Shown: one piece after another, positions 4,145 to 61,920 of the stretch
How the letters are laid out: each line of letters begins with the position of its first letter
How positions within the stretch are numbered: position 1 is the stretch's first letter
Notes under the pieces: generated by a model
What the model was told of the DNA's origin: nothing
Database searches by the model: none
The model's input: only the letters and a program-made list of their open reading frames with translations
Translations under genes and position numbers: made by a program
Assembly (NCBI GenBank): GCA_045635825.1
Contig: JAZTWM010000015.1
Location: forward strand, 6,786-70,785
From: Candidatus Enterousia sp.
GTDB lineage: Bacteria > Pseudomonadota > Alphaproteobacteria > Rs-D84
Reading direction: 5' to 3'
DNA length: 64,000 bases

Positions 4145-4153
4145 TTTGTATGA

Positions 4154-5404: not shown

Positions 5405-5497
5405 ACCCCCTATTTTGCCCCAAATAAATCCAAAGGCAAGAAATTTTATGATTTTTTTACTTGCGTTTGTTTTCCAGATATGTATAATGGGTGGCAT

Positions 5498-5573
5498 GCC
5501 GGTTTAGCTCAGCTGGTAGAGCGGCTGATTTGTAATCAGTAGGTCGTTGGTTCAAGTCCGACAACCGGCACCA
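5498..5573 (+). tRNA. tRNA-Thr (anticodon UGU)
   Basis: 76-nt cloverleaf folded by hand. Acceptor GCCGGTT/AACCGGC, D-arm GCTCAGCTGGTAGAGC, anticodon loop TTTGTAA, T-arm GTTGGTTCAAGTCCGAC, encoded CCA. Followed by a hairpin terminator at 5577-5606. Confidence 0.85.
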
Positions 5574-5636
5574 GTTTAGAAACGCACCATTTGGTGCGTT
5601 TTTTCTTTGGATTTCTTTGACTTTTTGATTTTTTGT
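5525..5636 (+). repeat. attL: 112-bp direct repeat (3' two-thirds of tRNA-Thr plus 63 bp downstream)
   Basis: Identical to 11355-11466 over 112 bp (compared by eye, base by base). Confidence 0.85.
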
Positions 5637-5782
5637 TGGGGGCACAAACCAGAAATCGCACAAGCAGAAAAATCGAAAATATAAAAGCCCTTTTTGATGC
5701 TTATGATGTACAATATTCTTCGCTTGAAATAGTGCTATATTAGCTCTTGAAAATATAAACATAAGAATATATCGCTAGTTTA

Positions 5783-6124
5783 TCATTCCCCATCTGGGAT
5801 TTCGGGGCTGGATACTTCGGTAATATCATCAAATGGGATTTTGGTTTTGACTATGGTGATGTATCGGTATTCGGGGTCTATGCGGGTGACCATGCCCGTT
5901 ATGGTGTCATAGGCATCGGTCCGATAAAATCGCACCGTTATCATCATGCCTTTTTTAATCAGCCCAAGTTTCCGTGACAGTCGTTCTGCGGCATCGCCAA
6001 TCAATTCCCGTCTGGGCTCCACCACCCGATTTTTAGCCAGCACCATCGCATAGTACCCACGCAGGGCCGCAAAAGGCATAAACTGTTTTGCACGTGCGGT
6101 ATTATCAGCCATTGTGTCCCCCAA
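5783..6124 (-). CDS. YolD-like protein (accessory partner of UmuC-type polymerases)
   Basis: 113 aa. Overlaps the polymerase gene by 20 nt, which suggests an operon. Sequence pattern resembles the YolD family. Confidence 0.6.
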   Translation of the reverse strand: MGDTMADNTARAKQFMPFAALRGYYAMVLAKNRVVEPRRELIGDAAERLSRKLGLIKKGMMITVRFYRTDAYDTITGMVTRIDPEYRYITIVKTKIPFDDITEVSSPEIPDGE

Positions 6125-7367
6125 CCAAAGTATTACGTTTGCGACCGGTGGACCTCTCGTGATAATTTATGCCACGCAGGACGGCATTCTTGCCAAACTT
6201 GCCCTTGATATCCAGCAATGCGTGTTGCAGTTTGCTTTCGCGTTCGTCCGCCCTTGTGTCCGCAAATAAATCCAGTTGCAGATGCACCGTATCCGCATCA
6301 ACCAGGTTCCCTAGCCCCACCGTCAATTTATGTATCGGCGTGCGTTTGTCGGTCGTTTCCCTATACAATCGCATAAACTCCGCCACCAACGATTTATAGG
6401 ACGATGTGTGCGCTGGCAATTTACGACTGCCCCCAGTTGGGCGTCGCACATCACGTGAATACCCCACCGACAGAGATATTTCATCCGCCACCAGATTCTT
6501 TTCCACCAATTCCAAGACCAGGTTATCGACCATTTCCTGCATCACAATCTGTGCGTCGTCAAAGTTATAGTCTTCGAACAGAATCTGGCCGTTGGACAGG
6601 GAATGGGATTTCGCCTGATAATTGTGAATGTCGGCAATCGTGCACGGTTCAACACCATTGGCATGGTCAATCAGGTATTCCGCGTTTGTGCCGAACTCAC
6701 GATACAGGGTTTCGGGCGGCAACTGCGTCACCCCATACAGGTCATAAACACCGTATTTTTCCAGTCGCCGTGCAATACCCGCCCCGATGTTCCAGATATC
6801 TGTTATCGGCCGATGGTGCCACAGGTGCTGGCGGAACGATTCCGCATCCAGGTATCCGATATGGTCGGGGACTTTCTTGGCCGTGATGTCCAGCGCAACC
6901 TTAGCCAAAAACAAGTTCGTGCCAATGCCAGCGGTGGCGCATATGCCCGTCTCGGCCCGCACCGCATCCATCAGCATTATCGCCATTTCTTTGGGCGACC
7001 GTTTATACATTTTCAAGTAAGGCGTGATATCGATAAAGCATTCATCAATGGAATAGACATGGATGTCTTCGGGTGAAATATAGCGCAGATAAATCCCGTA
7101 AATCTGGGCGGATACCTCCATATACTTTTTCATGCGGGGCATGGCGGTGATGTATTCGACCCCACGCGGGATTTCAAAGACTCGACATCGGTTGCGAATC
7201 CCCAGTACCTTCATCGCCGGCGTTATCGCCAGACAGACCGACCCCCGCCCCCGTGACGGGTCCGCCACCACCAGGTTTGTTGTAAATGGGTCCAGGCCAC
7301 GGTCAACCGCTTCGACCGAGGCAAAGAAACTCTTTAAATCAATGCAAAGATAAAACCTTTCCGCCAT
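6105..7367 (-). CDS. Y-family (UmuC/DinB-type) translesion DNA polymerase
   Basis: N-terminal LCIDLKSFFASVE and SIDECFIDIT catalytic motifs. 420 aa. Local GC about 50%, versus about 30-40% for neighbours. Confidence 0.85.
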   Translation of the reverse strand: MAERFYLCIDLKSFFASVEAVDRGLDPFTTNLVVADPSRGRGSVCLAITPAMKVLGIRNRCRVFEIPRGVEYITAMPRMKKYMEVSAQIYGIYLRYISPEDIHVYSIDECFIDITPYLKMYKRSPKEMAIMLMDAVRAETGICATAGIGTNLFLAKVALDITAKKVPDHIGYLDAESFRQHLWHHRPITDIWNIGAGIARRLEKYGVYDLYGVTQLPPETLYREFGTNAEYLIDHANGVEPCTIADIHNYQAKSHSLSNGQILFEDYNFDDAQIVMQEMVDNLVLELVEKNLVADEISLSVGYSRDVRRPTGGSRKLPAHTSSYKSLVAEFMRLYRETTDKRTPIHKLTVGLGNLVDADTVHLQLDLFADTRADERESKLQHALLDIKGKFGKNAVLRGINYHERSTGRKRNTLVGGHNG

Positions 7368-7370
7368 TCC

Positions 7371-7395
7371 GTGAATCAGTATAAACCGAATTCAC
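7371..7395. promoter_or_regulatory. Palindrome GTGAAT-N13-ATTCAC immediately upstream of the polymerase start codon (candidate operator)
   Basis: 6-bp inverted arms seen directly. Position is -4 to -28 relative to the ATG at 7367. Confidence 0.3.
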
Positions 7396-7458
7396 AGGAT
7401 GTCAAAAAGGATTGTATGGATAAAGAAACCCGCCCACATGGGGCGGTTTCAAATTTTA

Positions 7459-7707
7459 TTATTTTTTCTTTTTTGTCCCCGACCTTTCTGTCGTAGAATT
7501 ATAAACAGCCCATATCAAAGCAAAAACCCAACCAAACAACGTAAATCCTAAGAATAAATTTAGAATAAAAATTGCTGTAAAATTAATGTGCTTTCTGCAT
7601 GCTGCAACAATAGAAGGCAAAAAGTAGATACCGATTAACAAAACTAGATATATCATCCCTAATAAAAATTCCATAATGTCCCTCTTTTTGTTATTTATTC
7701 TACGCAT
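7459..7707 (-). CDS. Small 2-TM membrane protein, superinfection-immunity (Imm)-like
   Basis: 82 aa. Two hydrophobic helices with the ...RKH.NF.AIFILNLFLGFTLFGWVFALIWA pattern typical of Imm_superinfect-type proteins. A hairpin terminator lies downstream. Confidence 0.55.
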   Translation of the reverse strand: MRRINNKKRDIMEFLLGMIYLVLLIGIYFLPSIVAACRKHINFTAIFILNLFLGFTLFGWVFALIWAVYNSTTERSGTKKKK

Positions 7708-8072
7708 GAATAAGAATATGTTTTTGGCATTCTGTACATGTTATTAGATATAGCGTCCACAAATACTGGTAATATACCAACCATCCAACCAATCGGGAAT
7801 ACGTCCAAGATAACTGCTGGTGTATTTAATTCACGCATAACCGTCTTTTCGGAACATGCCGAATTAGATGACTTGATGGTCAAATCATTATTTGAAAATA
7901 TAACCATATCTTGGTCTGGCTTTATCTTGTACACACCGCTATCGGCAGATACGGTTATCGTATCTTTGGAATTGTTGTACAGACGGGTTTCATGGTTGCT
8001 GCCTATACCGATTGTTCCGCATGCTGATAAAGTAAATAGAATTGATAAGATAACAAACTTTTTCATAGGCAC
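7695..8072 (-). CDS. Lipoprotein (lipobox LSAC)
   Basis: Signal peptide MKKFVILSILFTLSAC. Overlaps the imm-like gene by 13 nt. Confidence 0.55.
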   Translation of the reverse strand: MPMKKFVILSILFTLSACGTIGIGSNHETRLYNNSKDTITVSADSGVYKIKPDQDMVIFSNNDLTIKSSNSACSEKTVMRELNTPAVILDVFPIGWMVGILPVFVDAISNNMYRMPKTYSYSCVE

Positions 8073-8119
8073 TCCTTATTTTATGTCACAATAAACTTTA
8101 ATGAATAAATCCCCATAAA

Positions 8120-8506
8120 TCAATATGGTTTTTGGGATAAGACTTTTGATACAATTAAGTCAGCTGGTAATTGTGGGTGTGCCGGCAGGTCTGATACTAG
8201 CACCCAGTGCATATCATCGTGGACATGCAATTGGATTTCGCCGAGATAGGATACGATTTCGTATGTGTGCAGTTCGATTACCTTACCTGAATCTGTTGTA
8301 TGTTTTGCGATTGTAATAAGGTCGCCAACTTGCGCATCTATCCCCAATTCTTCGGTCAGTTCACGTTTCAGGCATGTTGGTCCATCTTCACCATCTTCAA
8401 ATTTACCGCCGGGATATTCCCATTCGCCAGCCAATGGCTGGTCAGCCGCCCGTCGCATCAGCAGAACTTTATCCCCATCTCTAAAAATCGCAGCAGTTAC
8501 TTTCAT
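8120..8506 (-). CDS. NUDIX hydrolase
   Basis: Canonical Nudix box G-x5-E-x7-R-E-U-x-E-E-x-G-U: GKFEDGEDGPTCLKRELTEELGI. Confidence 0.85.
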   Translation of the reverse strand: MKVTAAIFRDGDKVLLMRRAADQPLAGEWEYPGGKFEDGEDGPTCLKRELTEELGIDAQVGDLITIAKHTTDSGKVIELHTYEIVSYLGEIQLHVHDDMHWVLVSDLPAHPQLPADLIVSKVLSQKPY

Positions 8507-8514
8507 TTGTTTCC

Positions 8515-9567
8515 TTAGGCCTTGGTATAAAACGTTGTGCGACCGTTGCCGTGTTTGACCAGGTGGCCATTATCTGTCAGGTTGCGCAGGATTTTCTTTA
8601 CCGTGTCGATATTCATCCCTAAATGCTGGGCCAGTTCACCCGATGACCATTCGGCACGCACCTCAAAAGCCCCCAGGATATTTAATGCATTACGGGACAA
8701 TGCGGTATCCGTACCGCTGGCACGTTCCAGCTTGGATTCCAGATGGCGTTTTTGTTTCTGTAATGATGTGATAAAGAAATCCAACCAAGGACCATAATCA
8801 ACGCTGTCCGACCAGATTGTCTTTTGCGTGTCATGCAACGCACGATAATACATGCCTTTGCTGGCCTCTATAATCGATTCCATTGACGCATATGGCATAT
8901 ATGAATAACCGCTTTGCAGCATCAGCATCGTTGTCAATGCACGTGACATACGTCCATTTCCGTCCTTGAACGGGTGAATAGACAGGAAATGCACAATAAA
9001 CACGCCAATCACAACGATTGGATGCAAATAACGTTCTTTCAGGTTCAGATTAGTCCAGTCCAGCAATTCGCCCATCAGACGTGGCGTATCGAACGGTGTT
9101 GCCGTTTCAAATATAGACCCGATTTCATGACCGTTTGCGTCAAAAGCGGCAACACGGTTGGATGAAGTTTTATATTCGCCACGGTGGTCGATATCCTTGC
9201 TGGAATGCGACAACAGAATTTTGTGCAACTGCTTGATATAATTTTCATTCAATGGAATAACCGAATAATCATTCAAGATACGGTCGACCAAGTCGGCATA
9301 TCCGGCAACTTCTTCTTCGTCACGACTTTTGAAAGATGTTTTGTTGACGTTTTTGAACAGGGTTTCGATTTCTGCATCTGTCATCTTGTTCCCCTCGATG
9401 CGGTTGGACGAGCCGACGGATTCAATGGTTGCAACCATTCTCATGGCACGCAAGACATCCGGGCGAACCTTAATCGCACCGCTGTCCCAGTTGGCCTTAA
9501 AAACGTCCAGTTCTGAAATCTTGTTCAGCATTTCTGGCGTGATAATAATATTCTTCATATTTGGCAT
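8515..9567 (-). CDS. Fic family protein with C-terminal winged-helix domain
   Basis: Fic motif HPFKDGNGRMSRAL. N-terminal inhibitory-helix-like SNRIEG (S-x-x-x-E-G). Confidence 0.85.
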   Translation of the reverse strand: MPNMKNIIITPEMLNKISELDVFKANWDSGAIKVRPDVLRAMRMVATIESVGSSNRIEGNKMTDAEIETLFKNVNKTSFKSRDEEEVAGYADLVDRILNDYSVIPLNENYIKQLHKILLSHSSKDIDHRGEYKTSSNRVAAFDANGHEIGSIFETATPFDTPRLMGELLDWTNLNLKERYLHPIVVIGVFIVHFLSIHPFKDGNGRMSRALTTMLMLQSGYSYMPYASMESIIEASKGMYYRALHDTQKTIWSDSVDYGPWLDFFITSLQKQKRHLESKLERASGTDTALSRNALNILGAFEVRAEWSSGELAQHLGMNIDTVKKILRNLTDNGHLVKHGNGRTTFYTKA

Positions 9568-9983
9568 GTTTTTACACCTTTTTACACAATTTTACACGAT
9601 TCTGCACGAAAAGCAACGATTTTTTACATTTTTCTGGGCGGATTTAAAGCGACACTTTAGATTATCGAAAATTTGCCCACTAACCCATCCCAAAATATCC
9701 CGGCGGTTACTTTCATTTATTCAATTTATCGCTAATTATATCGCTAGTTTTTTTGTCGAAACTAGCGATATATGATTATCGCCCGGATTTTATCAAATGT
9801 ACACATTTTGTTTTCCGACTCACCCAGCAACAAAAAAACGTGTAAAAACAAACCTTTTCCAAGTGCCAAGCAATAAATTTCTGTCATAATAGAAATTTTC
9901 TGCAGTTTTACATAAAATTTCTATTAAGGCAGTTTTCTGCAGTTCCCCAGACGTATATTCATGCGTAATATCAGACCATATTT
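9568..9983. promoter_or_regulatory. Island control region with several repeat motifs
   Basis: TTTTACAC x2; inverted repeat TATATCGCTAGTTT/AAACTAGCGATATA; TTCTGCAGTT x2 spaced about 34 bp apart. AT-rich. Lies between the fic operon and int. Confidence 0.4.
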
Positions 9984-11183
9984 TTACAATGAAACCGCCT
10001 CGATATATTTCTGTGGTATATTGTTCAGCATTTCGTTTGTTGCACGTTGCATTGATTGACGGATTGGGTCTGCTGATAAATGCGCATAGATTTGCGTGGC
10101 GGCAATTGACTTGTGACCCAATGAACGGCCAATAATTTGCAGGCTAGAACCTTCCATTGCTTGATAACTGCCCATTGTATGGCGCAGGTCATGTATGCGC
10201 ATGTTTTCAATGTTGGCACGTTTCAATAACGATGCCCATGATGACTTGGGTTCCTCAAGATGTCCGCTTTTGCTGGTATCGCTTGGGAATAGCCACGGAC
10301 TGTCGCCCGCATCATTTCGCATCTGTATTAACAAATCCATTGCATGCGTTGTCAAAGGAATATTGACATCATCGCCGTTTTTAGTGTCTGCAAAACGTAC
10401 AAAGCCGTTTTCAAGGTCAATATCTGACCAGCGCAAGGCCAACATATTGCTGCGACGTTGTGCCAAAAACAGTGATAACAACACATAATTGCGAAATACG
10501 GTATTTGAATATTTCAGCGCATCAAGAAATCGCCGCAGCTCTTCCTGGGACAAATAGCGAACGCGGCTTTTTTCTTTGAATGGTTTTATGTTCTGTGCAG
10601 GATTTTCTAATCTGCGTGGATACCCCAATTCATATGCCTTGTTATACATGTGGCGCAGTAAACTAAGTGTACGGTTGGCGGTGTATAAACCACAATTGCG
10701 TTTTATCGAATTATGCAGCTGTGTAACCTCTTGCTGTGTTATGGTACGCATCTGGCGATTATGAAACGGCGCTAGATGTCTTTCAAATGTGATATTATTG
10801 TCATAAACCGTCTTAGGTTTTTTATACAGCTGCGAATGCTGGGGAAGATAAACATTCTTGTAATAGTGTCCCAAGGTCATATCGTTCAATGCGTCACGAC
10901 GTTCTGTTGCAGGGTCTTCACCATGTAACGACCGTTCTTTATATTCATGTGCACGCATACGGGCCTCGGCTATTTTTATCTGACCGACACGGGCGATTTT
11001 TACGCGACGTGGCATTCCTTGAAATTTAAGATACGCGAAGTATGTTTTTGCTCCTCCATAACTTACATGTACGCATAATCCATCCAATGACCCAGTATCA
11101 TAATATATGACTGTGCCTGTCTTTGGAACCGGCAATGCATCCAGTGTTTTATTTGTAAAGTTGATACGATTTGACTTACTCAT
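9984..11183 (-). CDS. int: Tyrosine site-specific integrase
   Basis: C-terminal catalytic region ...RIHDLRHTMGS... and ...IAATQIYAHL (R..H..R..Y). Adjacent to attR. Confidence 0.9.
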   Translation of the reverse strand: MSKSNRINFTNKTLDALPVPKTGTVIYYDTGSLDGLCVHVSYGGAKTYFAYLKFQGMPRRVKIARVGQIKIAEARMRAHEYKERSLHGEDPATERRDALNDMTLGHYYKNVYLPQHSQLYKKPKTVYDNNITFERHLAPFHNRQMRTITQQEVTQLHNSIKRNCGLYTANRTLSLLRHMYNKAYELGYPRRLENPAQNIKPFKEKSRVRYLSQEELRRFLDALKYSNTVFRNYVLLSLFLAQRRSNMLALRWSDIDLENGFVRFADTKNGDDVNIPLTTHAMDLLIQMRNDAGDSPWLFPSDTSKSGHLEEPKSSWASLLKRANIENMRIHDLRHTMGSYQAMEGSSLQIIGRSLGHKSIAATQIYAHLSADPIRQSMQRATNEMLNNIPQKYIEAVSL

Positions 11184-11354
11184 AATTCCATTTCCTTTAT
11201 GTTATTTTTTTGCTACGTATTTGCTACCGCGGGCATAAAAAAACACATAACAACGTTCATTTCCATTCAACATTAGCAAAAATCAAAACAAATGCAAGAC
11301 ATTGTTTTTACTAAAATATTCATCATCATTCATCGTTATTCATGATTAAGCAAA

Positions 11355-11466
11355 CTGATTTGTAATCAGTAGGTCGTTGGTTCAAGTCCGACAACCGGCA
11401 CCAGTTTAGAAACGCACCATTTGGTGCGTTTTTTCTTTGGATTTCTTTGACTTTTTGATTTTTTGT
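11355..11466 (+). repeat. attR: second copy of the 112-bp repeat (truncated tRNA-Thr 3' part plus terminator)
   Basis: Identical to 5525-5636. Lacks the tRNA 5' half. Confidence 0.85.
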
Positions 11467-11655
11467 GTTTAGTGGCGAAGTCATGCGGGGCGGACAGTTT
11501 TTATTTTATTCGGGGCGTGCAAACGCAACCCATTTCTGCCCCATGACTCCAAAACACCAACAACTGTGATGCAAAGTGTGATGCGATGTGGTATCTGTGT
11601 AAAAAATAACTTGATTTATTTTTGTGTCATTTTAACCTGAAAAAAGGTACGTAAA

Positions 11656-15000: not shown

Positions 15001-15906
15001 TTATTCAAACATTTCAAGTGGGATGTCATATTCATGACAGAATTCGTAAAAGAACTCTAGAAATGCCTGAACCTTGGGACTTTTAATTGTTAGGGGGTTT
15101 CCAATGCCTGTTAAGATATATTCATAGTCAAATTCTATGTTTGGAACCTCTATCAATTTTTCATTACGCATTGTACACCAATCAGGCATCAAGGAAATAC
15201 CTGCCCCGTCACACACCAATTGATACAGAATTGATGCAGAATCAGCCGTCACATTCAATTTTTTTGCACGCTTTAAAATGAAATTACATTCGGGCAGTTG
15301 TAAAAACTTTTGACGGATACACAAGTCATAATTTTCCAGCATATCATCCATATCACGTGGAACCCCACGTTTTTGTAAATATTCTGGTGTTGTATAGAAC
15401 TTTGTCTTGGTCTTGAATTTGAACAAAGGGGTTGTCCCAGGTATTTTTTGTAATGACCGAATGTCAATAATTGAAATATCTGGGTTGGTCATGTTCATGT
15501 GTCTGTTGGTCAAAATGTCCAGACGGATTTTGGGATGCTTGGCATATAATTTTGATAATTCAATGAATAGACGACTGCCGGCAAAACCTTCTTCGGTCCA
15601 GATAGAAATGTGACCGGTCAATTCATCGGGCCCAGTAATATTATGCAAAATATTTTCCAACGCATTTGATATGCTTTCAATATCTGCATATAACTGACGG
15701 GTGGTATTGGTGGGGACACTGCCAGAAGAACTGCGTATCAGCAGACGGGTTTTGAAGCGTGCCTCTAAATCCGCAATCAATTTTGACATATTTGAATGCT
15801 TAATCCCATTGCGTTCGGCGGCAGCATGAATTTGACCAAGATCTATTACCTCTTTCAACGCCAACAATTCACGTAGAAATGCAATTTTAGTTTTAATTGT
15901 TGGCAT
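15001..15906 (-). CDS. LysR-family transcriptional regulator
   Basis: N-terminal HTH (LRELLALKEVIDLGQIHAAAERNGIKHSNMSKLIADLE) plus a co-inducer-binding-sized C-terminus. Divergent from a downstream regulator/exporter pair. Confidence 0.8.
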   Translation of the reverse strand: MPTIKTKIAFLRELLALKEVIDLGQIHAAAERNGIKHSNMSKLIADLEARFKTRLLIRSSSGSVPTNTTRQLYADIESISNALENILHNITGPDELTGHISIWTEEGFAGSRLFIELSKLYAKHPKIRLDILTNRHMNMTNPDISIIDIRSLQKIPGTTPLFKFKTKTKFYTTPEYLQKRGVPRDMDDMLENYDLCIRQKFLQLPECNFILKRAKKLNVTADSASILYQLVCDGAGISLMPDWCTMRNEKLIEVPNIEFDYEYILTGIGNPLTIKSPKVQAFLEFFYEFCHEYDIPLEMFE

Positions 15907-24277: not shown

Positions 24278-25465
24278 ATGAATAAACTATCACGTGACTT
24301 GAAAATAATGATTGCGTTTGCCGCATTACGTAATATCAGCGAACTGTTTCTGGTGACATTTTTGATTTCTTTTATCATGCATTTGGCATCCAACGAGATT
24401 TTATCCGTATCGATGTATAATTTATTTCAATATGCAGCAACCTGTGCGGGGTTCTTTGTGTTTGCAAATTGGTGTAAAAAACACAACAAGGTTGCAGTAT
24501 TTGGATTGCATTTGATACCAAAAATTGCGTTACTGGTATCTATTATCATACTGGGGAATCGGGCGGTAGATTATGTTGTACCATTGGGAATCATGTACGG
24601 AATTGGTGCGGCAATGTATCATTTGCCAATGAACACAATGACCGGTGAAAAGGTGCCACACAAATTGATGAATCACTATATCGGCACCAGAAACGCCATA
24701 TGCTATGTGGTAAAGATTATTGCACCATTGGTTCTGGGATTCTTTATTAGCGAGGCATCATATACAGATATGGCGTGCGTGCTGTTGGGGATTGCACTGA
24801 TTGAACTGATACTGATGTTCCAATTAACACCATCACGTCACATCAGTCGCCAAGGCATAGATATACCAGGGTTCTTTCGCTGTATGTTCAGATTCCCTGT
24901 AATTCGCCAGACATTTGCAATGGAGGCTTTGCGTGGGTTTGGATTGGGCCTGTTGGGGGCGGTCATTACAATGTATACCGTATACATGTTCCAGACGGAT
25001 TTAAAACTGGGCATCTTTACAACCATATTTGGCGCATGTTCTATTTTTACATCTTGGGCATTTGGTCGCTGGGTAAAACAAAAATATTGGGCGTATGTAT
25101 TGGTGCCGGCAATGCTGATGATTGGTGGGGCATTATCAATGTTTCTGTATATGGCAACACCTGTAACATTTCTGGTGTACAACTTTATTTATGCAACAGC
25201 GATTATCGCAATTGACCAGGCCAGTGCCGTTAATGTATTTAAATTAGCACATTCGAAATGTGTGACCAAAAATTACAAAGTTGAATACTTTGTATTTCGT
25301 GATACAGCACTGTTTATTGGCCGGTGGATTGGCTTTGTGGGCCTGATGTATATTGGTGTGTTTGGCGGATATGCGTGGTTGCGTTGGTATCTGGCACTGA
25401 TAACAATGGCAATATTGATGTGTGGCGTAATGGCAATCAAACTGGGCCGAAACAATAAAAATTAA
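24278..25465 (+). CDS. Polytopic membrane protein, MFS-transporter-like
   Basis: About 12 hydrophobic helices across 395 aa. Confidence 0.45.
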   Translation: MNKLSRDLKIMIAFAALRNISELFLVTFLISFIMHLASNEILSVSMYNLFQYAATCAGFFVFANWCKKHNKVAVFGLHLIPKIALLVSIIILGNRAVDYVVPLGIMYGIGAAMYHLPMNTMTGEKVPHKLMNHYIGTRNAICYVVKIIAPLVLGFFISEASYTDMACVLLGIALIELILMFQLTPSRHISRQGIDIPGFFRCMFRFPVIRQTFAMEALRGFGLGLLGAVITMYTVYMFQTDLKLGIFTTIFGACSIFTSWAFGRWVKQKYWAYVLVPAMLMIGGALSMFLYMATPVTFLVYNFIYATAIIAIDQASAVNVFKLAHSKCVTKNYKVEYFVFRDTALFIGRWIGFVGLMYIGVFGGYAWLRWYLALITMAILMCGVMAIKLGRNNKN

Positions 25466-25533
25466 ACATGTATTTTTTTAGTGACTTTTCTATATTTTGT
25501 TGACATAATAATTTTTGTGGCAACAGGATTTTT

Positions 25534-27057
25534 ATGTCAAAAAGCATGTATGATATTATCAAAAAGCAAAATGGCGAACACTTTGCCAAGGCCATTCGTT
25601 GTTATGACAATGGCATTTTTGACATTCCAAATCTGGATCGAATTGTAAAGTATGCTGGTCGTGACGCAGAACCAGTTATGAAATACTTGATATCGCTGAA
25701 AAATATTGAGATTACCAGACAAAGCAAACACCACGAACCGTTAACCCTGTTGGCACAGGCTGGATATACCGCATACGTTGCAGACACATTAGAAAAACAA
25801 AACGCCATCGCCAGATATTTTGCACCGAACGAACAACTGTGCACGTTCAAGGATAAAGACAGATTCCAAAGATACTATATTATAAATGCAGTTCGGCATG
25901 ATGCAGACAAATTAAGACGTGATGACTTTACACACCCAGAACGTGAAGACGCATATGGAACATCCGTTATTTCAATTCAAGTATTAAAAGAAGGCGGATT
26001 TATTAGCATAAAGAACAGATACAATCACGCCGTAGAATCATGTGACAATACCTTCAATTCAAATCCCGACAATATCATTATGGGGCTGTCCGATGCGATA
26101 CAGAATTACTTTAATGTAGACTTTGTCACAACGCATTGTGATTTGCCACGTGGATACAGATTGGTTGGCGAACACATTTGCAAATATAACCAAGAAATCA
26201 ACAACGTCTATGTTGGTGAAAACTTTTATATCGCAGATGGCATAATACATGACATAAATGGCCAAAATAAAATTATGCTGGGTGGTGGGCTAATTTTTGA
26301 TATCCCCAGCAAAACCGTTCATAATATCGCACACCCTTTTTACAATTGGAATTGTATTGATAATATATTTCGCAACAAGGCATTACAACAAATAAAAGAT
26401 AAAAAGACGGGCGTACGCACATTGACTGCAGATGGCGTGCCGGTTATGCGAATTAACGCAGGACAGATGACTTATATAAACCTGGCGGATGCACCAAGCG
26501 TTCTGTTGACGGATATGAATAAACTGTGTGGGGAATTAGATTTGTCCAAGGCATTTGAGGTTGATTTAGAAAATATTAACACAGAAAATATTACACGCAT
26601 AAAGTTTAACCCAATGGTGCGTTCAGTACAGATAAAACAAACTGCCCTGCCCCGGGATAGTTATAATTTTAGTAATGCGAACACTTTGATATTGAACAAT
26701 GCGGATTTTTCAAATGCAACAGGCTTTAAAACCAAACGCGATGCAGGACACGTTGTAATCAGCAATGTAAAGTTCCCACACCTGGACTTTGATTTCAGCC
26801 AGGTCGAGATTTTAGGTCTGCCGAACTGTGATTTGCGTGGTGTTAAATCCATTAAATTCAATCCAAATGGATACAGAATAAATCTGCGCGGTGCAAAGTT
26901 ACCAGCACAAAAGTTTAATTTAGAACATGTTGATGATTTAATTTTAGATAACACAGATACAAGCCTGGTTCATGGTATGAAAATAAATCCCAATCGCGTA
27001 ACAGGTATCACACCAGCAAACGCACTAAGATTGATAGAACAATATAAGCAAAGATAA
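25534..27057 (+). CDS. Hypothetical 507-aa protein with C-terminal pentapeptide-like repeats
   Basis: C-terminal third has runs such as NNADFSNATGF..ISNVKFPHLDFDFSQVEIL..CDLRGVKSIKF..INLRGAKL. Followed by hairpin AGACCACCAAAATGGTGGTCT. Confidence 0.5.
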   Translation: MSKSMYDIIKKQNGEHFAKAIRCYDNGIFDIPNLDRIVKYAGRDAEPVMKYLISLKNIEITRQSKHHEPLTLLAQAGYTAYVADTLEKQNAIARYFAPNEQLCTFKDKDRFQRYYIINAVRHDADKLRRDDFTHPEREDAYGTSVISIQVLKEGGFISIKNRYNHAVESCDNTFNSNPDNIIMGLSDAIQNYFNVDFVTTHCDLPRGYRLVGEHICKYNQEINNVYVGENFYIADGIIHDINGQNKIMLGGGLIFDIPSKTVHNIAHPFYNWNCIDNIFRNKALQQIKDKKTGVRTLTADGVPVMRINAGQMTYINLADAPSVLLTDMNKLCGELDLSKAFEVDLENINTENITRIKFNPMVRSVQIKQTALPRDSYNFSNANTLILNNADFSNATGFKTKRDAGHVVISNVKFPHLDFDFSQVEILGLPNCDLRGVKSIKFNPNGYRINLRGAKLPAQKFNLEHVDDLILDNTDTSLVHGMKINPNRVTGITPANALRLIEQYKQR

Positions 27058-27240
27058 AGACCACCAAAATGGTGGTCTTTTTATTTTGTCAGCCCCAGAT
27101 TGATAACATTCGAACTGAAATATCATTGTACGAGGCAGAAATCCAAGAAATTTTAGATTTACTAGAAGAGTTTTTGAACGATTTGAAACAGTAAACTATT
27201 GAGATGTTGCAAATAAAAAAAGGTATGCTAATATGAAAAT

Positions 27241-27975
27241 ATGTCTATAAAGAAGAGTCTTCAACAGCTTTTTCCTAATATCAAATCATGGGGTTGGTAT
27301 GGCTGGGTAAAGTACCTAATGACAGGATTGTTTCTTTTTGGTGCGATCAGGCTAACAATATTTTCTGTATCCCAAAGTTTTTCTGAACATGATTTGTGGG
27401 AGATAACGTTTCTTATTCCGTTGTTTGTATTGCCTATGTTATCTTGTGCCTGGTTGATCATAAAGGATTATAGGTTACCATATATCGTTTGTATGATATT
27501 TGGCTCAATGATGCTATTTCACTCTGTAAAAGTACTTGGGGTTTATACCGATACGTTTCCAGATAGTTTGGATATTTTTGATATTACACTAACAGCATTA
27601 TCTTTGGTTTGTTTTTTGAAAATTACACTTGATAAAAAACTCAACCAGAAAGAAGATCATAGTGTTTTATCTTCCATAGCTGTGTGTTTTATTACCGCAT
27701 TAGGAATATTGATAGCTATCGGATCAATGATTTTCCCAGATGACGATGATTGGAAGTTTAGGTTAGAAAAAGAATGTATAGAAACAAAAGTGACAAAAGG
27801 TTATCCAAGAGATTTTGCACGAGAATATTGTCTTGGTGCCGGTGAAGGATGCGTTGAAAAAGGTTATGTAGAAAATTGTGAAGTTGGACTTAAATGTTGT
27901 TTTGCAACAATTGAAGAAGATAAGAAATGGAACTATCTGGATTATGACGAGATCGGGAATAAGATAGAGAAATAA
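27241..27975 (+). CDS. Hypothetical membrane protein with Cys-rich C-terminal tail
   Basis: About 6 TM helices. Tail CLGAGEGCVEKGYVENCEVGLKCC. Followed by the same hairpin as the previous gene. Confidence 0.45.
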   Translation: MSIKKSLQQLFPNIKSWGWYGWVKYLMTGLFLFGAIRLTIFSVSQSFSEHDLWEITFLIPLFVLPMLSCAWLIIKDYRLPYIVCMIFGSMMLFHSVKVLGVYTDTFPDSLDIFDITLTALSLVCFLKITLDKKLNQKEDHSVLSSIAVCFITALGILIAIGSMIFPDDDDWKFRLEKECIETKVTKGYPRDFAREYCLGAGEGCVEKGYVENCEVGLKCCFATIEEDKKWNYLDYDEIGNKIEK

Positions 27976-28159
27976 AAAGACCACCAAAATGGTGGTTTTA
28001 ATTTTGGTAGGGCCACTTAAGCAATTCACGAACTGATTTTATTCGTGATTTGTTGTCGTTCGGGAAAAATATCAAGGTGTTTTTGGATAAAATTTGTTAA
28101 ATAATTTTTTTTATGTTATAATAGGTATGAATTCAAAGAGTTATAAAAAAGGATAATAA

Positions 28160-28681
28160 ATGGCAGATTGGTTTAATAATGATTTATCTGATTACATAGA
28201 TAAAAAAGAAAAAGTTATTATTGATGTGCGTAAAAACGATAAAATTTGTGTTTTATCTAGTTTTATTTTATCATTATTTTTTTCAGCAATATTAGGGTTC
28301 ATGGGTGCATTTGTGGATATTGGACTTGCAATATTTGCATTGTTAGGTAGTTTTTGTCTGTTTATGTGGTTGATTTATAATAGCCAGCGAGCAACGAGAT
28401 ATGTTTTGACAAATTGCGGGATTTATAGAATCGCAGGACTGATTTTCAAAAGAACCAAATTTGTCGCATATAACCAAATCACAGATGTGAGCGTGTCCAA
28501 AGGCCCGATACAAACAATTGTTGGTTGTGGTTCGGTTGGCGTTGGTACTGCCAGTAATAATGTTGTAGGTTCGGTGTCAGATGGTAACGGTGCAATATAT
28601 TCAATAAATGAATTAGACATAGAATCTGTAGATAATTATAAACAGATACGAGAAATTATTATCAAAAACAGAAAAAAATAG
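28160..28681 (+). CDS. Membrane protein with bacterial PH (bPH_2/YdbS-like) domain
   Basis: Two TM helices then YVLTNCGIYRIAGLIFKRTKFVAYNQITDVSVSKGPIQ, typical of the bPH_2 fold. Confidence 0.6.
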   Translation: MADWFNNDLSDYIDKKEKVIIDVRKNDKICVLSSFILSLFFSAILGFMGAFVDIGLAIFALLGSFCLFMWLIYNSQRATRYVLTNCGIYRIAGLIFKRTKFVAYNQITDVSVSKGPIQTIVGCGSVGVGTASNNVVGSVSDGNGAIYSINELDIESVDNYKQIREIIIKNRKK

Positions 28682-28788
28682 AAAAAGTTCGTAAACGTAT
28701 GAAATGGTGTCAGTTTTTGATGCCCGACTTACGAACTTGTGAAAGTATTTGAAAACAAAATTAAAACCGACCACAAGGGTCGGTTGTA

Positions 28789-28805
28789 ATTTTGGCAGCC
28801 CCAAC
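28789..28805. repeat. 17-bp perfect copy of the tRNA-Glu 3' end (att-like)
   Basis: ATTTTGGCAGCCCCAAC is identical to 29039-29055. Degenerate copies at 28001-28016 and 27083-27098. Each sits right after a hairpin terminator. Confidence 0.7.
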
Positions 28806-29042
28806 TTCGCCCCTTGACAAACATTAACCAAACCTAGACGCAAAAACTCTATTAAACATATCCGTTTTTGCAGGTTTGCTAATTGTTTGTCTGCGTATTC
28901 GCCATGCGTGCCTGCGGGCGATACCCACGAAAACTGCGTTTTCATATGGTGCATGTGCACCAATAACGGCACTCTGGCGCATCCGGTTGGGACTGCTGTT
29001 TCAAAATAAAAAAATCGGGTATAAAACCCGATTTGTTTATTT

Positions 29043-29118
29043 TGGCAGCCCCAACCGGATTCGAACCGGTGTTCTCGCCTTGAAAGGGCGGTGTCCTAGG
29101 CCTCTAGACGATGGGGCC
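29043..29118 (-). tRNA. tRNA-Glu (anticodon UUC)
   Basis: Reverse complement GGCCCCATCGTCTAGAGGCCTAGGACACCGCCCTTTCAAGGCGAG...GGTTCGAATCCGGTTGGGGCTGCCA. Close to the classical tRNA-Glu sequence. Confidence 0.85.
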
Positions 29119-29192
29119 AAAACTGCCATATTCTGTCGAATGCTGGCCAATTATACATTGTATATCTGCCATTGTCAAGCAAATATATATTT

Positions 29193-29630
29193 TTATTCTG
29201 CAACAACTTCACCGGTTGTTTCAGCAACGGTACCATCTGGCAGTTCTTCAACCTGGGTAAAGATAATTTCTTTGCCGTCTGTTGCAATCAATGTCAATTT
29301 ACCGTCCGCCAATTCATAGCGTTCAACCGTTGGCATAAATTCAAAGTATTCTTGTTCGGTTTCCATTGCCTCAGGCGAACCCATCATCATTGTTGATGCA
29401 AAGCCTTCGAATTTAATATTGTCGCCTTTGGCGGCATAACCACCGTTATAACGGTTTACAACACCACCATATACACGCATTTCAACCGGATCAAATGTCA
29501 GGGTGATATCTGCACCAGGTTGGGCGGACACAAAGTTTGTACCCTTTAACATATCTGGGTTTGCACCGTTATCACCACATGCACATAATGTCAATGCACA
29601 TACACCAGCCATAAACAATTTTAATTTCAT
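29193..29630 (-). CDS. META-domain (HslJ-like) lipoprotein
   Basis: Lipobox LTLCACG. ITLTFD...RVYGG.VNRYNGGY pattern of META domains. Confidence 0.6.
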   Translation of the reverse strand: MKLKLFMAGVCALTLCACGDNGANPDMLKGTNFVSAQPGADITLTFDPVEMRVYGGVVNRYNGGYAAKGDNIKFEGFASTMMMGSPEAMETEQEYFEFMPTVERYELADGKLTLIATDGKEIIFTQVEELPDGTVAETTGEVVAE

Positions 29631-29726
29631 TTCCTGTCCTTTTTGTTTGTATTAGATATTTTTATTATAACGATTTATTTTCAATAATAAATAAGAAAAT
29701 CCCCCCATAGTCTGGAGGGAATGTTC

Positions 29727-31709
29727 TTACCATAACTTTACACGTTCGCCCGGTAATATGTACAAGGCATCATCAGGCCCGATACCAAACGCATCATACC
29801 ATGCGTTGATATGTGGCAAGATTCCGTTCACGCGATTTTTCCCCAAGGAATGTTCATCAACCTTGGTCAGACGCAATTCTTCATCTGGGCGGATATTCTG
29901 GGCCCATGCACCAGAATATGCGATAAAGAAGCGACGATCCGCACTGATATTTTCGCCATCATTTGTTTGTGTGCCAAAGTTTTTATATGCATCAAATGCG
30001 ATTGTAACACCACCGTAATCTGCCAAGTTTTCACCCAATGTAAACTCGCCATTGGCATTGACTTCGTCATTGATTTTAATTGTGTTAAAGAAGTCACGCA
30101 TTACATTTGCACGCGCGGTAAAACCGTCTGCATCGGCCGGTGTCCACCAATCACGCATATTACCATCTGCGTCAAAATGACGCCCAGAATCATCAAAGCC
30201 ATGTGTCATTTCATGACCAATAACCGCACCGATTGCACCATAGTTAAATGCATCATCCGCAGACATATCAAAGAAAGGATACTGCAATATACCCGCAGGG
30301 AAACAAATTTCATTTGTTGATGGATCATAGTATGCATTAACCTCGTGTGCGTTCATGTACCAGATGGTTGGATCTTTTTTCTGACCGATTTTTTCCAACC
30401 AGAATGCGTCTTCGAATTTAGAGACACGTACCATATTTTCCCACAAAGAATCATTGCGGATTTCCAGCGCAGAATAATCACGCCATTTATCAGGGTACCC
30501 AATCTTGGCACGAAAAGTTGATAATTTATGAAGTGCCTTGTCACGTGTGGCATCGGTCATCCAATCCAGATTTTCAATACGCATTGCATAGGCACGTTGC
30601 AGATTCTTGACCAGCGTTTGCATGCGTTCTTTGGCATCGGCAGAAAAGTATTTTTCAACATACAGACGACCGATTTCTTCGCCCAATGAATCATCCAACA
30701 TTGATACCGCACGTTTCCAGCGTGGCTTTGGTTCTTTCTGGCCCGCCATTGTACGATTGTAAAAATCAAATGCAATATCATATGTTTTATCGTCCAAAAC
30801 ACTGGATGCAGACAAGACAATACGGTATTTTAAGTATGTCTTAATCAATTCAAAATCTGTGTCATTCATGATTGCGATTGATTCTGTAATCGCTTCTGGT
30901 TGGGCGATATTTATAAACTTGGCTGCAGATGCACCACGTTCGGCCAAAAATACAGCCCAATCAAAACCTGGAAATGTATCTTGGATTTGTTCAACACTCA
31001 TTTTATGATAATTCGCATGTGGGTCACGCAATTTTTCTTTTGGATAGAAAGATTTTGCCATACGTTCTTCCAATGCATAAAGTTTTTCAACATCAACCGC
31101 AATACCAAAGTTTGACATTTGCTGTTTCATAAAATCACGATATTTTTCACGAACCTGAACCGTCTTGGCATCGGTGTCAAAATAGTAGTCACGTGATAGC
31201 CCCAGACCACCCTGGCCAATATTGTATAGGTAATGTTCGCTGTCCATTTCGTCCAAGGCAACGCCATCACCAAAGAAAGCAGAAGAAAAGGTATGCATAC
31301 GCCCCAAATATTTTTCCAAATCTGCACGTGTCAGGGTATCTATTTCAGCCAACAATGGGGCAACAGGCGACACGCCATCGGCATTTAACTTGTCCGCATC
31401 CATCGCAATTTTATACAACATACCAATTTTACCAGAATCACCCTGGGCAATATCACGTGTGCGTTCCAGGTTTGTGTTACGCAAAACCTCAAATGCACCA
31501 TAGCGCGAATAATCATCTGGAATTGGATTACGTGCCATCCAGCCACCATTTGCATAGGCAAAAAAATCGTCACCAGGTTTTACAGACATATCCATATTTT
31601 CAAGTTTAATGCCAGCCATTACTACTTTCTCCTTTGTATAAAAATGCGCCCAACACAATGTGGCACCAACCGCCACAATACCAATCAGATTCCAGAACTT
31701 ACTTTCCAT
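29727..31709 (-). CDS. M13 family zinc metallopeptidase (PepO/neprilysin-like)
   Basis: HEMTHGFDD (HExxH) and GENLADYGG (GENIAD motif). N-terminal signal anchor. Confidence 0.85.
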   Translation of the reverse strand: MESKFWNLIGIVAVGATLCWAHFYTKEKVVMAGIKLENMDMSVKPGDDFFAYANGGWMARNPIPDDYSRYGAFEVLRNTNLERTRDIAQGDSGKIGMLYKIAMDADKLNADGVSPVAPLLAEIDTLTRADLEKYLGRMHTFSSAFFGDGVALDEMDSEHYLYNIGQGGLGLSRDYYFDTDAKTVQVREKYRDFMKQQMSNFGIAVDVEKLYALEERMAKSFYPKEKLRDPHANYHKMSVEQIQDTFPGFDWAVFLAERGASAAKFINIAQPEAITESIAIMNDTDFELIKTYLKYRIVLSASSVLDDKTYDIAFDFYNRTMAGQKEPKPRWKRAVSMLDDSLGEEIGRLYVEKYFSADAKERMQTLVKNLQRAYAMRIENLDWMTDATRDKALHKLSTFRAKIGYPDKWRDYSALEIRNDSLWENMVRVSKFEDAFWLEKIGQKKDPTIWYMNAHEVNAYYDPSTNEICFPAGILQYPFFDMSADDAFNYGAIGAVIGHEMTHGFDDSGRHFDADGNMRDWWTPADADGFTARANVMRDFFNTIKINDEVNANGEFTLGENLADYGGVTIAFDAYKNFGTQTNDGENISADRRFFIAYSGAWAQNIRPDEELRLTKVDEHSLGKNRVNGILPHINAWYDAFGIGPDDALYILPGERVKLW

Positions 31710-45216: not shown

Positions 45217-45292
45217 GTCCCCATAGTTCAACAGGATAGAACAAATTCCTCCTAAGAATTAGATGCAGGTTCGAGCCCTGCTGGGGACGCCA
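45217..45292 (+). tRNA. tRNA-Arg (anticodon CCU)
   Basis: 76-nt cloverleaf. Acceptor GTCCCCA/TGGGGAC, anticodon stem AATTC/GAATT with loop CTCCTAA, T-arm GCAGGTTCGAGCCCTGC, CCA encoded. Confidence 0.8.
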
Positions 45293-45300
45293 TCATTGAA

Positions 45301-46224
45301 CTATCTTGATTTTTGCGTTAGAAACAGTGCAACATCCCAAGGACCCGTCATCATCGATTCAACCGACAACATGTCAAATTTTATATTATAATCTTGGGTG
45401 GCAGGATAAAACTCTTTGTCCTCGAAATGTCCAAGGTAATTAGCCCAGGCAACTGGGTTTGCACCCCACATATAATGAAAGCATATCGCCCCTTCTTTTG
45501 TTAGATTCTGTTGAACCAATCCATCCAGAACACCGTTATAATATGCCATCAAACGCCCTGCATAATCTGGGATACCACTGTTTTGATACAGATATTCAAA
45601 TACATTGGACAACATCATAAAGTCGTATCGGTCGGATGTTTGGGACGACAAATCCGTCAAATTACAATGCCGGAACGGTATCTGTTCAGGTAAAACTTTT
45701 GATAACTTTTCGTACTTGGCAGGATCCGCCAGGTATGAGAGATAACAAATCTTGTAATTAGAGTTTTGGGCCGCACCATATTTCAACACATCTTTTGATG
45801 AACTGCGATATTTGGCCAAGAAATCACGTAATTCTGGCGAAAATGAGGACCGAATACCGTTTAAAATAGACATGTCAAAAAAATGATTCTGGCTGAAGAA
45901 GAAATCAACAAACTTTTGATAATCCAGATTACGAATCATATGGGTCTTTAATTCTATGACCGGCTTCTGCCAGGAATTAATATCAAATGTATCAACATGT
46001 TTTGCACCCGCCAAATATGCCTCGAACGCATGGTCGCCAGATGCACCAATTGATAAAACACGTGCATCTTGCAGATTTATAGGACGCAAATAACCCGCCA
46101 CATTTTCATTTGTAAACAGATAGACCGGCGATTTATCTTGAAACGCATAGTCACTGGGGATATTAACGGGTCTGCGTAAAAGTTTCTTGAATATATTATT
46201 CATAGCACGCAAAACATAACACAA
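45301..46224 (-). CDS. Hypothetical protein with class-I SAM-methyltransferase-like motif
   Basis: ARVLSIGASGDHAFEA (motif I-like) and HVDTFDIN (acidic motif II-like). Confidence 0.4.
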   Translation of the reverse strand: MCYVLRAMNNIFKKLLRRPVNIPSDYAFQDKSPVYLFTNENVAGYLRPINLQDARVLSIGASGDHAFEAYLAGAKHVDTFDINSWQKPVIELKTHMIRNLDYQKFVDFFFSQNHFFDMSILNGIRSSFSPELRDFLAKYRSSSKDVLKYGAAQNSNYKICYLSYLADPAKYEKLSKVLPEQIPFRHCNLTDLSSQTSDRYDFMMLSNVFEYLYQNSGIPDYAGRLMAYYNGVLDGLVQQNLTKEGAICFHYMWGANPVAWANYLGHFEDKEFYPATQDYNIKFDMLSVESMMTGPWDVALFLTQKSR

Positions 46225-61914: not shown

Positions 61915-61920
61915 TAAAAA

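Follow-up and report, generated by a model that had tools for sequence, protein, structure and literature searches.

A candidate array of integrase-less cassettes at the 3′ end of a tRNA-Glu gene in Candidatus Enterousia

Introduction

Tandem accretion of mobile units is exemplified by the integrative and conjugative elements (ICEs), along with cis-mobilizable elements (CIMEs), of Streptococcus thermophilus. At tRNA and transfer-messenger RNA (tmRNA) genes, it has been described for the ssrA islands of Dehalococcoides (PMC3146451) and the asn-tDNA islands of Klebsiella (PMC4891358). Here, we analyze a 64,000-nt stretch of Candidatus Enterousia DNA (hereafter the window) that contains, at positions 25534–29118, an array of small units beside a tRNA-Glu(UUC) gene. 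As in tandem accretion, direct repeats of the RNA gene's 3′ end delimit successive units and units devoid of a recombinase persist; under the accretion model, the newest unit would adjoin the intact gene. The array differs in that its units measure 0.25–1.7 kb and hold zero to two genes, some being gene-less, that arms of about 70–80 nt are conserved whatever the cargo, and that no autonomous partner element is known.

Three other systems are close enough for comparison. Prochlorococcus tycheposons build genomic islands next to tRNA genes (10.1101/2020.12.28.424599), and the array shares with those islands a streamlined genome poor in other mobile DNA, an accumulation of flexible genes beside a tRNA, and partial tRNA copies between arrivals. 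Tycheposons, however, have integrase and replication modules and span several kb or more, whereas neither module was seen in the cassette-sized, arm-bearing units described here. Gut bacteria of the order Rs-D84 have genomes of about 0.75–1.0 Mb (PMC12306168). Integron arrays, and clusters of attC sites without an integrase (CALINs), likewise consist of small diverse cassettes with hairpin-forming ends and no adjacent integrase; the present array instead has, as its site, the 3′ end of tRNA-Glu flanked by LP and B arms (described below), another order of boxes, another cut position and both gene orientations. The attC sites are imperfect palindromes of 57–141 nt with a 5′ RYYYAAC and a 3′ GTTRRRY box, and recombine between the G and TT of the latter. 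A complete integron additionally has an IntI integrase, an attI site and a Pc promoter at one of its ends. Integrons are reportedly not found in Alphaproteobacteria. Finally, a P4-type island at a tRNA-Thr gene in the same window resembles the array in its direct repeat, which runs from inside the tRNA past the terminator, and in its accessory cargo, but is a single unit with its own integrase, whereas the tRNA-Glu site is a multi-unit array without one.

An initial annotation of this DNA proposed that cassettes, each a gene plus a terminator, had been inserted repeatedly and site-specifically at tRNA-Glu. Comparison of alleles and loci largely bears this out, with the action of a recombinase remaining an inferred step and one gene, encoding a 507-aa protein, an insecure member. 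In our reading, the array probably arose as mini-elements without an integrase were inserted site-specifically, one after another, at the 3′ end of tRNA-Glu, with subsequent loss and exchange that proceeded partly by homologous recombination.

Results

The array is punctuated by copies of the tRNA-Glu end, each preceded by a hairpin (Table 1). The 17-mer ATTTTGGCAGCCCCAAC, read on the plus strand, comprises 13 nt of the tRNA 3′ end and 4 nt downstream, and the exact repeat reported in the initial annotation was confirmed at both positions (29039–29055 and 28789–28805). Two degenerate copies that it also listed are present as well. With up to three mismatches allowed, the window holds three matches against 0.31 expected from shuffles, and none of 100 shuffles reached three; the copy at 27083 was recovered by this count. 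The copy at 28001 needs more than three mismatches or a gap and is not significant alone, and we judge it real because its GGCC core and the same downstream arm recur in four comparison loci (L087, L085, L091 and L119). Both ends of the units carry direct repeats of the tRNA 3′ end, as in tRNA-targeting islands: the exact 17-mer bounds the type A element and diverged cores bound both gene cassettes. A terminator-like hairpin stands directly 5′ of each of the four core copies, as previously proposed; the hairpins, which follow the 507-, 244- and 173-aa open reading frames (ORFs) and, within type A, precede the tRNA, score on both strands. The 20-mer AAGACCACCAAAATGGTGGT said to be shared by two of them occurs exactly at 27057 and 27977, with 0 occurrences expected, and the near identity of hp1 and hp2 (the 20-mer, and 43 nt at 81% with 920-bp spacing) fits a direct repeat bounding the 244-aa cassette. 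One might still suppose that T-runs after ordinary terminators, together with a few random matches, imitate a repeat, given that the first six bases of the 17-mer (ATTTTG) are terminator tail and that the copy at 28001 is weak in isolation. This chance explanation has a negligible probability and is refuted by the match statistics and by the conservation of the cores, with about 200 nt of flanking modules, across species.

Table 1 Features of the tRNA-Glu array, the tRNA-Thr island and gene-less inserts at other tRNA genes (window positions unless a comparison locus is named).
Feature	Position	Strand	Evidence or remarks
tRNA-Thr(tgt) island, single 5.8-kb unit	5498–11467 (island 5525–11467)		Integrase 9984–11183 (−)
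507-aa gene, no Pfam family, distal array member	25534–27057	+	ORF; cassette status uncertain
hp1, bidirectional terminator-like hairpin 3′ of the 507-aa gene	27056–27080	both	11 pairs; contains the 20-mer common to hp2
Core copy 1, ATTTTGTCAGCCCCAGA	27083–27099	+	14/17 to the tRNA end (3 mismatches)
D arm, conserved non-coding, start of the 244-aa cassette	27100–27200	+	86% to L087 6800–6896, there before unrelated genes
244-aa membrane protein, Cys-rich C-terminal domain, cassette cargo	27241–27975	+	ORF; absent from conspecific L090
hp2, terminator-like hairpin, near copy of hp1	27977–27999	both	43 nt at 81%, spacing 920
Core copy 2, GGCC form, ATTTTGGTAGGGCCAC	28001–28016	+	Read in sequence; same form and B arm in L087, L085, L091, L119
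B arm, conserved ~70 nt, core-proximal cassette start	28017–28090	+	Cross-locus alignment
173-aa bPH_2 protein, cassette cargo	28160–28681	+	Pfam PF03703, E 5.9e-10; absent from conspecific L090 and L116
LP arm, conserved ~80 nt, tRNA-proximal side of cassettes	28683–28762	+	Inverted pair AGTTCGTAA-N33-TTACGAACT invariant
hp3, terminator-like hairpin	28765–28785	both	L094 has hp3 adjoining the real tRNA-Glu, 98% over 50 nt
Core copy 3, exact 17-mer	28789–28805	+	13 nt tRNA plus 4 nt downstream
Type A element, gene-less ~250-bp insert	28806–29038		Holds ~76-nt imperfect palindrome (28816–28891), inverted tRNA end and hpT
hpT, current tRNA-Glu terminator hairpin, within type A	29012–29034	both	Hairpin scan
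tRNA-Glu(UUC), attachment gene	29043–29118	−	ARAGORN (ttc); Rfam 56 bits
Sigma-70-like consensus promoter TTGACA-17-TATAAT upstream of tRNA-Glu	29150–29178	−	12/12 matches
Gene-less inserts, 100–300 bp, tRNA-Arg	L045 13936–14072; L050, L052, L062, L069, L076, L077		Flanking tRNA-end repeats
Gene-less inserts, 100–300 bp, other tRNAs	L005 (Trp); L003 20733–20911 (Asp); L094 (Leu)		Flanking tRNA-end repeats

An MFS gene lies on one flank of the array and the tRNA and a META gene on the other; G+C content is 0.30–0.34 over 27000–28800 versus 0.40–0.45 in the flanks. A background set of 80 loci (L001–L080; 1.49 Mb) was retrieved by homology to the neighboring M13 peptidase, whose homologs in these Candidatus Enterousia and related alphaproteobacterial metagenome-assembled genome loci are 70–83% identical (aa). 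None of the 80 has tRNA-Glu, META or MFS beside M13, and they were usable only as background sequence. Metagenome contigs scanned for exact matches to the 27-mer at the tRNA-Glu 3′ end yielded 23 loci, and a look-up of the adjacent META protein yielded three more; exact-protein look-ups gave no match for M13, the 244-aa protein, the bPH protein or P0001. The 17-mer, the 20-mer and the junction modules were found only at tRNA-Glu loci, and the 17-mer is therefore not a common intergenic motif. The rest of the window and the 1.49 Mb of L001–L080 contained no LP, hairpin, core and arm modules, with the exception of type C, which occurs there at other tRNA genes.

Alignment of all boundaries revealed that, while the 17-mer recurs as initially described, the true repeat unit is a junction of about 200 nt with the plus-strand order LP arm, hairpin, core and right arm. 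The core consensus is TGGCAG(CC/GG)CCA(A/T)C, an A-run precedes and a T-run follows each hairpin, and the right arm takes one of five forms (tRNA body, B arm, D arm, type A or type C). The module order was constant in 12 loci, running from LP, hairpin, core and a B, D, A or C arm through the cargo to the next LP, hairpin and core, and ending at the tRNA. The LP arm of the array folds with z = −4.6, and 13–14 LP copies occur in 10 loci whatever the gene orientation. Copies of the B arm (consensus CAATTCACGAACTGA...TGATTTGTTGTCGTTCGGGAAAGATGTTAAGGTGTTTTT) are 76–89% identical and precede or abut eight different cargos in L087 (twice), L085, L091, L081, L092 and L119 (twice). Overall, LP and B arms surround at least eight different cargos in six species, with the cargo gene in either direction; because they keep their place regardless of cargo orientation, they behave like site arms and not like untranslated regions of particular genes. 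The GGCC core form accompanies the B arm in five loci and types A and C once each. The diverged copies had been described as decaying, whereas this form and its arm are kept together in different species, as would be expected of an element-borne half of a hybrid att site.

Treated individually, all 22 junction hairpins examined fold (−8 to −19 kcal/mol), and their stems comprise at least 13 different sequences. When the hairpins were aligned with MAFFT, RNAalifold retained only three pairs because the stems were out of register, and per-sequence folding was used instead. Structure kept without sequence fits bidirectional terminators that serve the tRNA and a convergent cargo gene. No tRNA lies within 6 kb of L126 6576–6730, where a bPH homolog (64% aa) precedes an LP arm, a hairpin and TTTTGGCAGCCCA; this is a displaced half-site carried off from its tRNA.

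Two comparison loci belong to the same species as the window. L090 matches window 25387–27092 at 96.6% and 28756–30982 at 98%, and has a 141-bp non-coding element in place of 27093–28755 (1663 bp), the segment with the 244-aa and bPH genes. L116, with flanks 97.4–97.8% identical (nt), shows a third arrangement. It has an extra MFS-like gene and an 88%-identical 507-aa allele without a hairpin or core after it, followed by a 114-aa lipoprotein gene, hp2, a perfect 19-nt copy of the tRNA end, type C, hp3, core, type A and the tRNA. Since the window, L090 and L116 differ between the same flanks, they represent three alleles in one species, and presence/absence variation among related strains is evident. 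Homology between the window and L090 ends inside core copy 1, after TGTCAG/TGGCAG at 27092; homology with L116 ends after TGGTAG/TGGCAG at 28010; and homology with L119 begins at the core and runs rightwards. These three core breakpoints place the exchange in or next to the last six tRNA bases (CTGCCA).

The L116 tract at 4130–6934 (window-oriented), in which the extra MFS-like gene encodes 386 aa and the 507-aa allele is 88% identical against 97.8% in the flanks, looks, as far as its sequence tells, like an import through homologous recombination. The 244-aa protein, which has no Pfam match, and the 114-aa lipoprotein of L116 share only their Cys-rich C-terminal ~70 aa (window 27764–27975 and window-oriented L116 7177–7388; 86% nt identity), and their N-terminal halves are unrelated. 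Labels given earlier to two of the proteins had to be revised. The 507-aa protein, annotated as a pentapeptide-repeat protein, has no Pfam match at E ≤ 0.01. Nor are the genes all orphans: the 173-aa protein is a bPH_2 member with 29 homologs, and relatives of the 507-aa protein were found by tblastn in L090 (97.6% aa), L091 (75%), L024 and L049, besides the allele of ~88% nt identity annotated as a 507-aa gene that L116 retains. In L103 and L092, the MFS gene adjoins tRNA-Glu without the 507-aa gene. This gene is the least secure cassette and may be of older or native origin.

The same cassettes were found at two tRNA-Glu genes. In L119–L121, from another species, the bPH cassette with its B and LP arms adjoins tRNA-Glu(CUC), the L119 homolog being 88% identical (aa) with the same B arm and LP. 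This tRNA is 76% identical to the window tRNA-Glu, differs by one base at its 3′ end (TGGCAGTCCCAAC) and has an unrelated neighborhood (MerR, GyrA). A second cassette (165/199-aa plus Mu_F-like) occurs both in L119, in the array at tRNA-Glu(CUC), and in L092, in the array at tRNA-Glu(UUC), the two versions being 81% identical over 1166 nt. Otherwise, the cargo of other species' arrays, as classified by Pfam, is unrelated between arrays and lies in either orientation. It includes enzymes (an N6/N4 DNA methylase with an unknown partner, a trypsin-like protease, two GNAT acetyltransferases and a DUF3419 methyltransferase), an alpha/beta hydrolase with a cyclophilin-like protein, an outer-membrane barrel protein, lipoproteins, and Mu_F-like, tail-fibre-like and DnaJ/MORN proteins. 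Elsewhere in the window, a DUF3419 methyltransferase gene (45301–46224, minus strand) converges on tRNA-Arg(cct) (45217–45292); the same Pfam family supplies a tRNA-Glu cassette gene in L081.

The initial annotation took the array to consist of gene cassettes only, whereas the 250 bp next to the tRNA form a gene-less insert, type A. They can be called an insert because type A is missing from L081, L082, L085, L091 and L094, where an hp3-like hairpin directly adjoins the tRNA. The window, L090, L116 and L095 contain type A, and L087 has three copies, two of them in tandem; the first ~100 nt of the element are 91–96% identical between species whose flanking genes are ~75% identical. An inverted copy of the tRNA 3′ end at 28978–28996, previously overlooked, forms with the last 18 nt of tRNA-Glu a 36-bp palindrome flanking the tRNA terminator, and the region 28975–29060 (the right end of type A and the last tRNA bases) folds at −46 kcal/mol with z = −7.7. 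Type C (L090 1717–1845) has conserved hairpins in the arrangement ATTCCCAT-hairpin-ATGGGCCCCTTTC ... CCGAACC-hairpin-GGTTCT and also occurs at tRNA-Asp (L003) and tRNA-Arg (L045), in each case flanked by direct repeats of that tRNA's end; an nhmmer profile of type C found no copies past the five already known.

Similar gene-less inserts accompany other tRNA genes (Table 1). Among 95 tRNAs in the comparison loci, 13 have their last 16 nt repeated downstream, mostly at a distance of 99–420 nt, and none has them repeated upstream. The exact direct repeats at the relatives' tRNAs are mostly 17–25 nt long, span the CCA end and involve Arg, Asp, Trp, Leu and Glu tRNAs; in L062, two perfect units stand in tandem. 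Many of these inserts start with an inverted copy of the tRNA end (L069; by eye), and the junction thereby resembles a recombinase core site with two inverted arms and a short spacer. Within the tRNA-Arg mini-insert of L069, a run of N (15488–15588) has the same 38-mer on each side and is probably a scaffolding gap with an unmerged overlap.

Other identities for types A and C were considered and rejected. A permuted tmRNA or tRNA pseudogene, considered by eye, was rejected, ARAGORN (-m) and Rfam giving no match, and so was a hammerhead ribozyme, on misfitting core bases. A conserved small ORF in type A is contradicted by loss of the frame in L087 (by eye). Miniature inverted-repeat transposable elements or other transposase-mobilized elements do not fit either: an inverted tRNA-end copy exists, but the duplications match the tRNA end and vary in length (mostly 17–25 nt), copies lie only at the 3′ ends of tRNAs, and no dispersed copies of either type occur in the 1.49 Mb. 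In Rfam searches of the non-coding units, only tRNAs reached the gathering score, with nothing credible at E ≤ 5 in 27000–29300, L090, L095, L081, L082 and L003.

These small elements bear on the idea that each unit is the remnant of a larger integrase-bearing island or prophage shrunk by deletion bias, in which case the small units would never have been mobile. At tRNA genes, tandem integration with later decay is already known, the tycheposon model being an example (10.1101/2020.12.28.424599), an intact island sits at tRNA-Thr in the same window, and the genomes are small (PMC12306168). We nevertheless consider erosion improbable. At least eight small cassettes retain both arms directly against one or two cargo genes, no integrase fragment was seen in any array, an identical small cassette is found at another tRNA gene in another species, and gene-less elements of 100–250 bp are conserved at up to 96% between species and stand in perfect tandem.

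Searches for a recombinase were negative at the array. Pfam detected no recombinase domain in the window cassette proteins or in 19 cassette proteins of other arrays, and none of the ~20 units seen contains an integrase, excisionase or transfer gene; the units are att-flanked and stand in tandem at one site without recombination or transfer genes, as CIMEs do, and lack the integrase next to att that marks a tyrosine-integrase island. The earlier statement that no integrase is present therefore stands for the array and fails for the window, where a P4-type tyrosine integrase gene is located at 9984–11183 on the minus strand (Phage_integrase, 5e-27; Arm-DNA-bind_3); the rest of the window has no further recombinase. 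This integrase belongs to the tRNA-Thr island, whose direct repeat of ~112 nt (5525–5637 = 11356–11467) reaches from the anticodon loop through the terminator and whose cargo comprises YolD/ImuB-like, NUDIX and Fic genes. Homologs with 48–57% aa identity reside in tRNA-Thr/Peptidase_U32 islands of other Enterousia genomes, and related integrases occur in tRNA-Thr islands with other cargo (L203, L204 and L206). As the tRNA-Thr repeat also takes in the tRNA terminator, an att-site style of this kind is used in this genome. An autonomous element with the att of the array that could supply an integrase was not found in the 23 metagenome loci, the other comparison loci or viral contigs. In the viral contigs, the core 16-mer had 12 matches (chance level), the LP pattern had none and a B-arm 15-mer had 73, the 20-nt ones lying inside a phage gene. 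Separately, VirB8- and CagX-like genes (type IV secretion/conjugation components) were noted at 61204–63465, beside the secE-nusG/tRNA-Trp region.

The structured junctions raise the further question of whether they are attC-like sites, folded as single strands, at which an unrecognized integron-type integrase captures cassettes beside the tRNA. Cassettes of one or two genes that each end in a structured site would suit such a system, as would cargo resembling that of chromosomal integrons (GNATs, a DNA methylase with a possible restriction partner, lipoproteins and unknowns), the long imperfect palindrome at the tRNA end, and the resemblance of GTTGGGG/CCCCAAC to GTTRRRY/RYYYAAC. The details argue the other way. 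The GTT... and ...AAC boxes are reversed in order relative to attC; the three gene-cassette junctions have no inverted core partner, and only the tRNA-proximal junction is a long palindrome; the breakpoints fall after TGGYAG, beside the GTTGGGG box and not within its GTT; cassettes lie in both orientations; and the array ends at a tRNA gene 3′ end, with no IntI-like gene in the window. We therefore regard an integron-type origin as very improbable.

Discussion

Several observations weigh against serial site-specific integration. No recombinase was found in ~12 arrays, nor were excised circles, reads of an empty site or an autonomous element sharing the att observed. The window integrase was rejected as the enzyme for the tRNA-Glu array, as it has no homolog in tRNA-Glu loci and its relatives are tied to tRNA-Thr. 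The 507-aa gene has no att on its left and, in L116, none on its right. On the right, the breakpoint that separates the window from L090 falls ~10 nt left of hp3, outside any core, both alleles sharing hp3 and core copy 3, and the L116 507-aa allele, diverged well beyond its flanks, indicates that plain homologous recombination also reshapes the locus. The missing recombinase, the breakpoint outside the core and the extra gene of L116, which with the diverged allele bears the signature of an imported tract, would be at home in a homologous-recombination hotspot of the minimal-mobile-element type. In such a hotspot, blocks would be exchanged via conserved flanks or shared intergenic modules, and the tRNA-end copies would arise by local duplication, with no dedicated recombinase. 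As the only process, however, a hotspot seems unlikely to us. The same cassettes, cut at core plus B arm, are found at two tRNA-Glu genes that are 76% identical and have unrelated neighborhoods without flanking homology; repeats of 17–25 nt over the CCA end occur at Arg, Asp, Trp, Leu and Glu tRNAs, always downstream; and the arm modules are conserved whatever the cargo or its orientation.

For serial integration, the data show the modular anatomy, the presence/absence variation between strains, the sharing of cassettes by two tRNA-Glu genes and the confinement of the modules to tRNA loci; which class of enzyme acts, where it crosses over and in what order events took place are inferred. The incoming circle would carry a bipartite attachment site of ~200 nt, with the LP arm and terminator hairpin on one side, a short crossover segment in the middle equal to the last ~6 nt of the tRNA plus the T-run (TTTTGGCAG on the plus strand), and a tRNA-like half-site (GGCCAxC or CCCCAAC) with a B or D arm on the other. 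Recombination with the tRNA end would restore the tRNA and supply a fresh terminator, leaving a hybrid site at the insert's far end and displacing older units from the tRNA. If the crossover lies in TGGCAG, the right side of a displaced site would come from the incoming element, and the divergent cores would then be the elements' own tRNA-like half-sites. From the tRNA outward, the units of the window would be type A (250 bp), the bPH cassette, the 244-aa cassette and the 507-aa gene. The recombinase would act in trans from outside the array and would most likely be a tyrosine integrase. Units would later be lost, swapped or imported when the repeated sites recombine with one another or when homologous recombination takes place in the conserved flanks.

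As a general process, stacking beside a tRNA gene with partial copies of the tRNA is already known (PMC3146451; 10.1101/2020.12.28.424599). Unusual features here are the small, cassette-sized units, the lack of a recombinase in any of them, conserved arms of bipartite build, two tRNA-Glu genes serving as sites, and gene-less companions at several tRNAs. Taken together, cassette-sized units, no recombinase and conserved arms point to a trans-acting recombinase serving a shared cassette pool. More speculatively, Enterousia and its relatives may possess a tRNA-anchored cassette system that is integron-like in its working and differently built. It would comprise a pool of one- to two-gene cassettes with a conserved ~200-nt bipartite site, whose capture, stacking and exchange at the tRNA-Glu(UUC) and tRNA-Glu(CUC) 3′ ends would be the work of a recombinase with its gene elsewhere, and a companion family of gene-less elements of 100–250 bp, consisting of the attachment site only, at no fewer than five kinds of tRNA. 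Type A might in that case be a fixed landing pad and not a parasite.

If the enzyme were found, the system would offer a compact, modular integration site of ~200 nt with a built-in terminator, and a testable case for the spread of gene-less attachment-site elements among tRNA genes. Among the cargo are proteins of the cell surface and secreted ones, acetyltransferases, and a DNA methylase that may have a restriction partner. Given genomes of about 0.75–1.0 Mb with few recognizable mobile elements, the strain-variable flank of this tRNA may be a main route of accessory-gene turnover in these bacteria.

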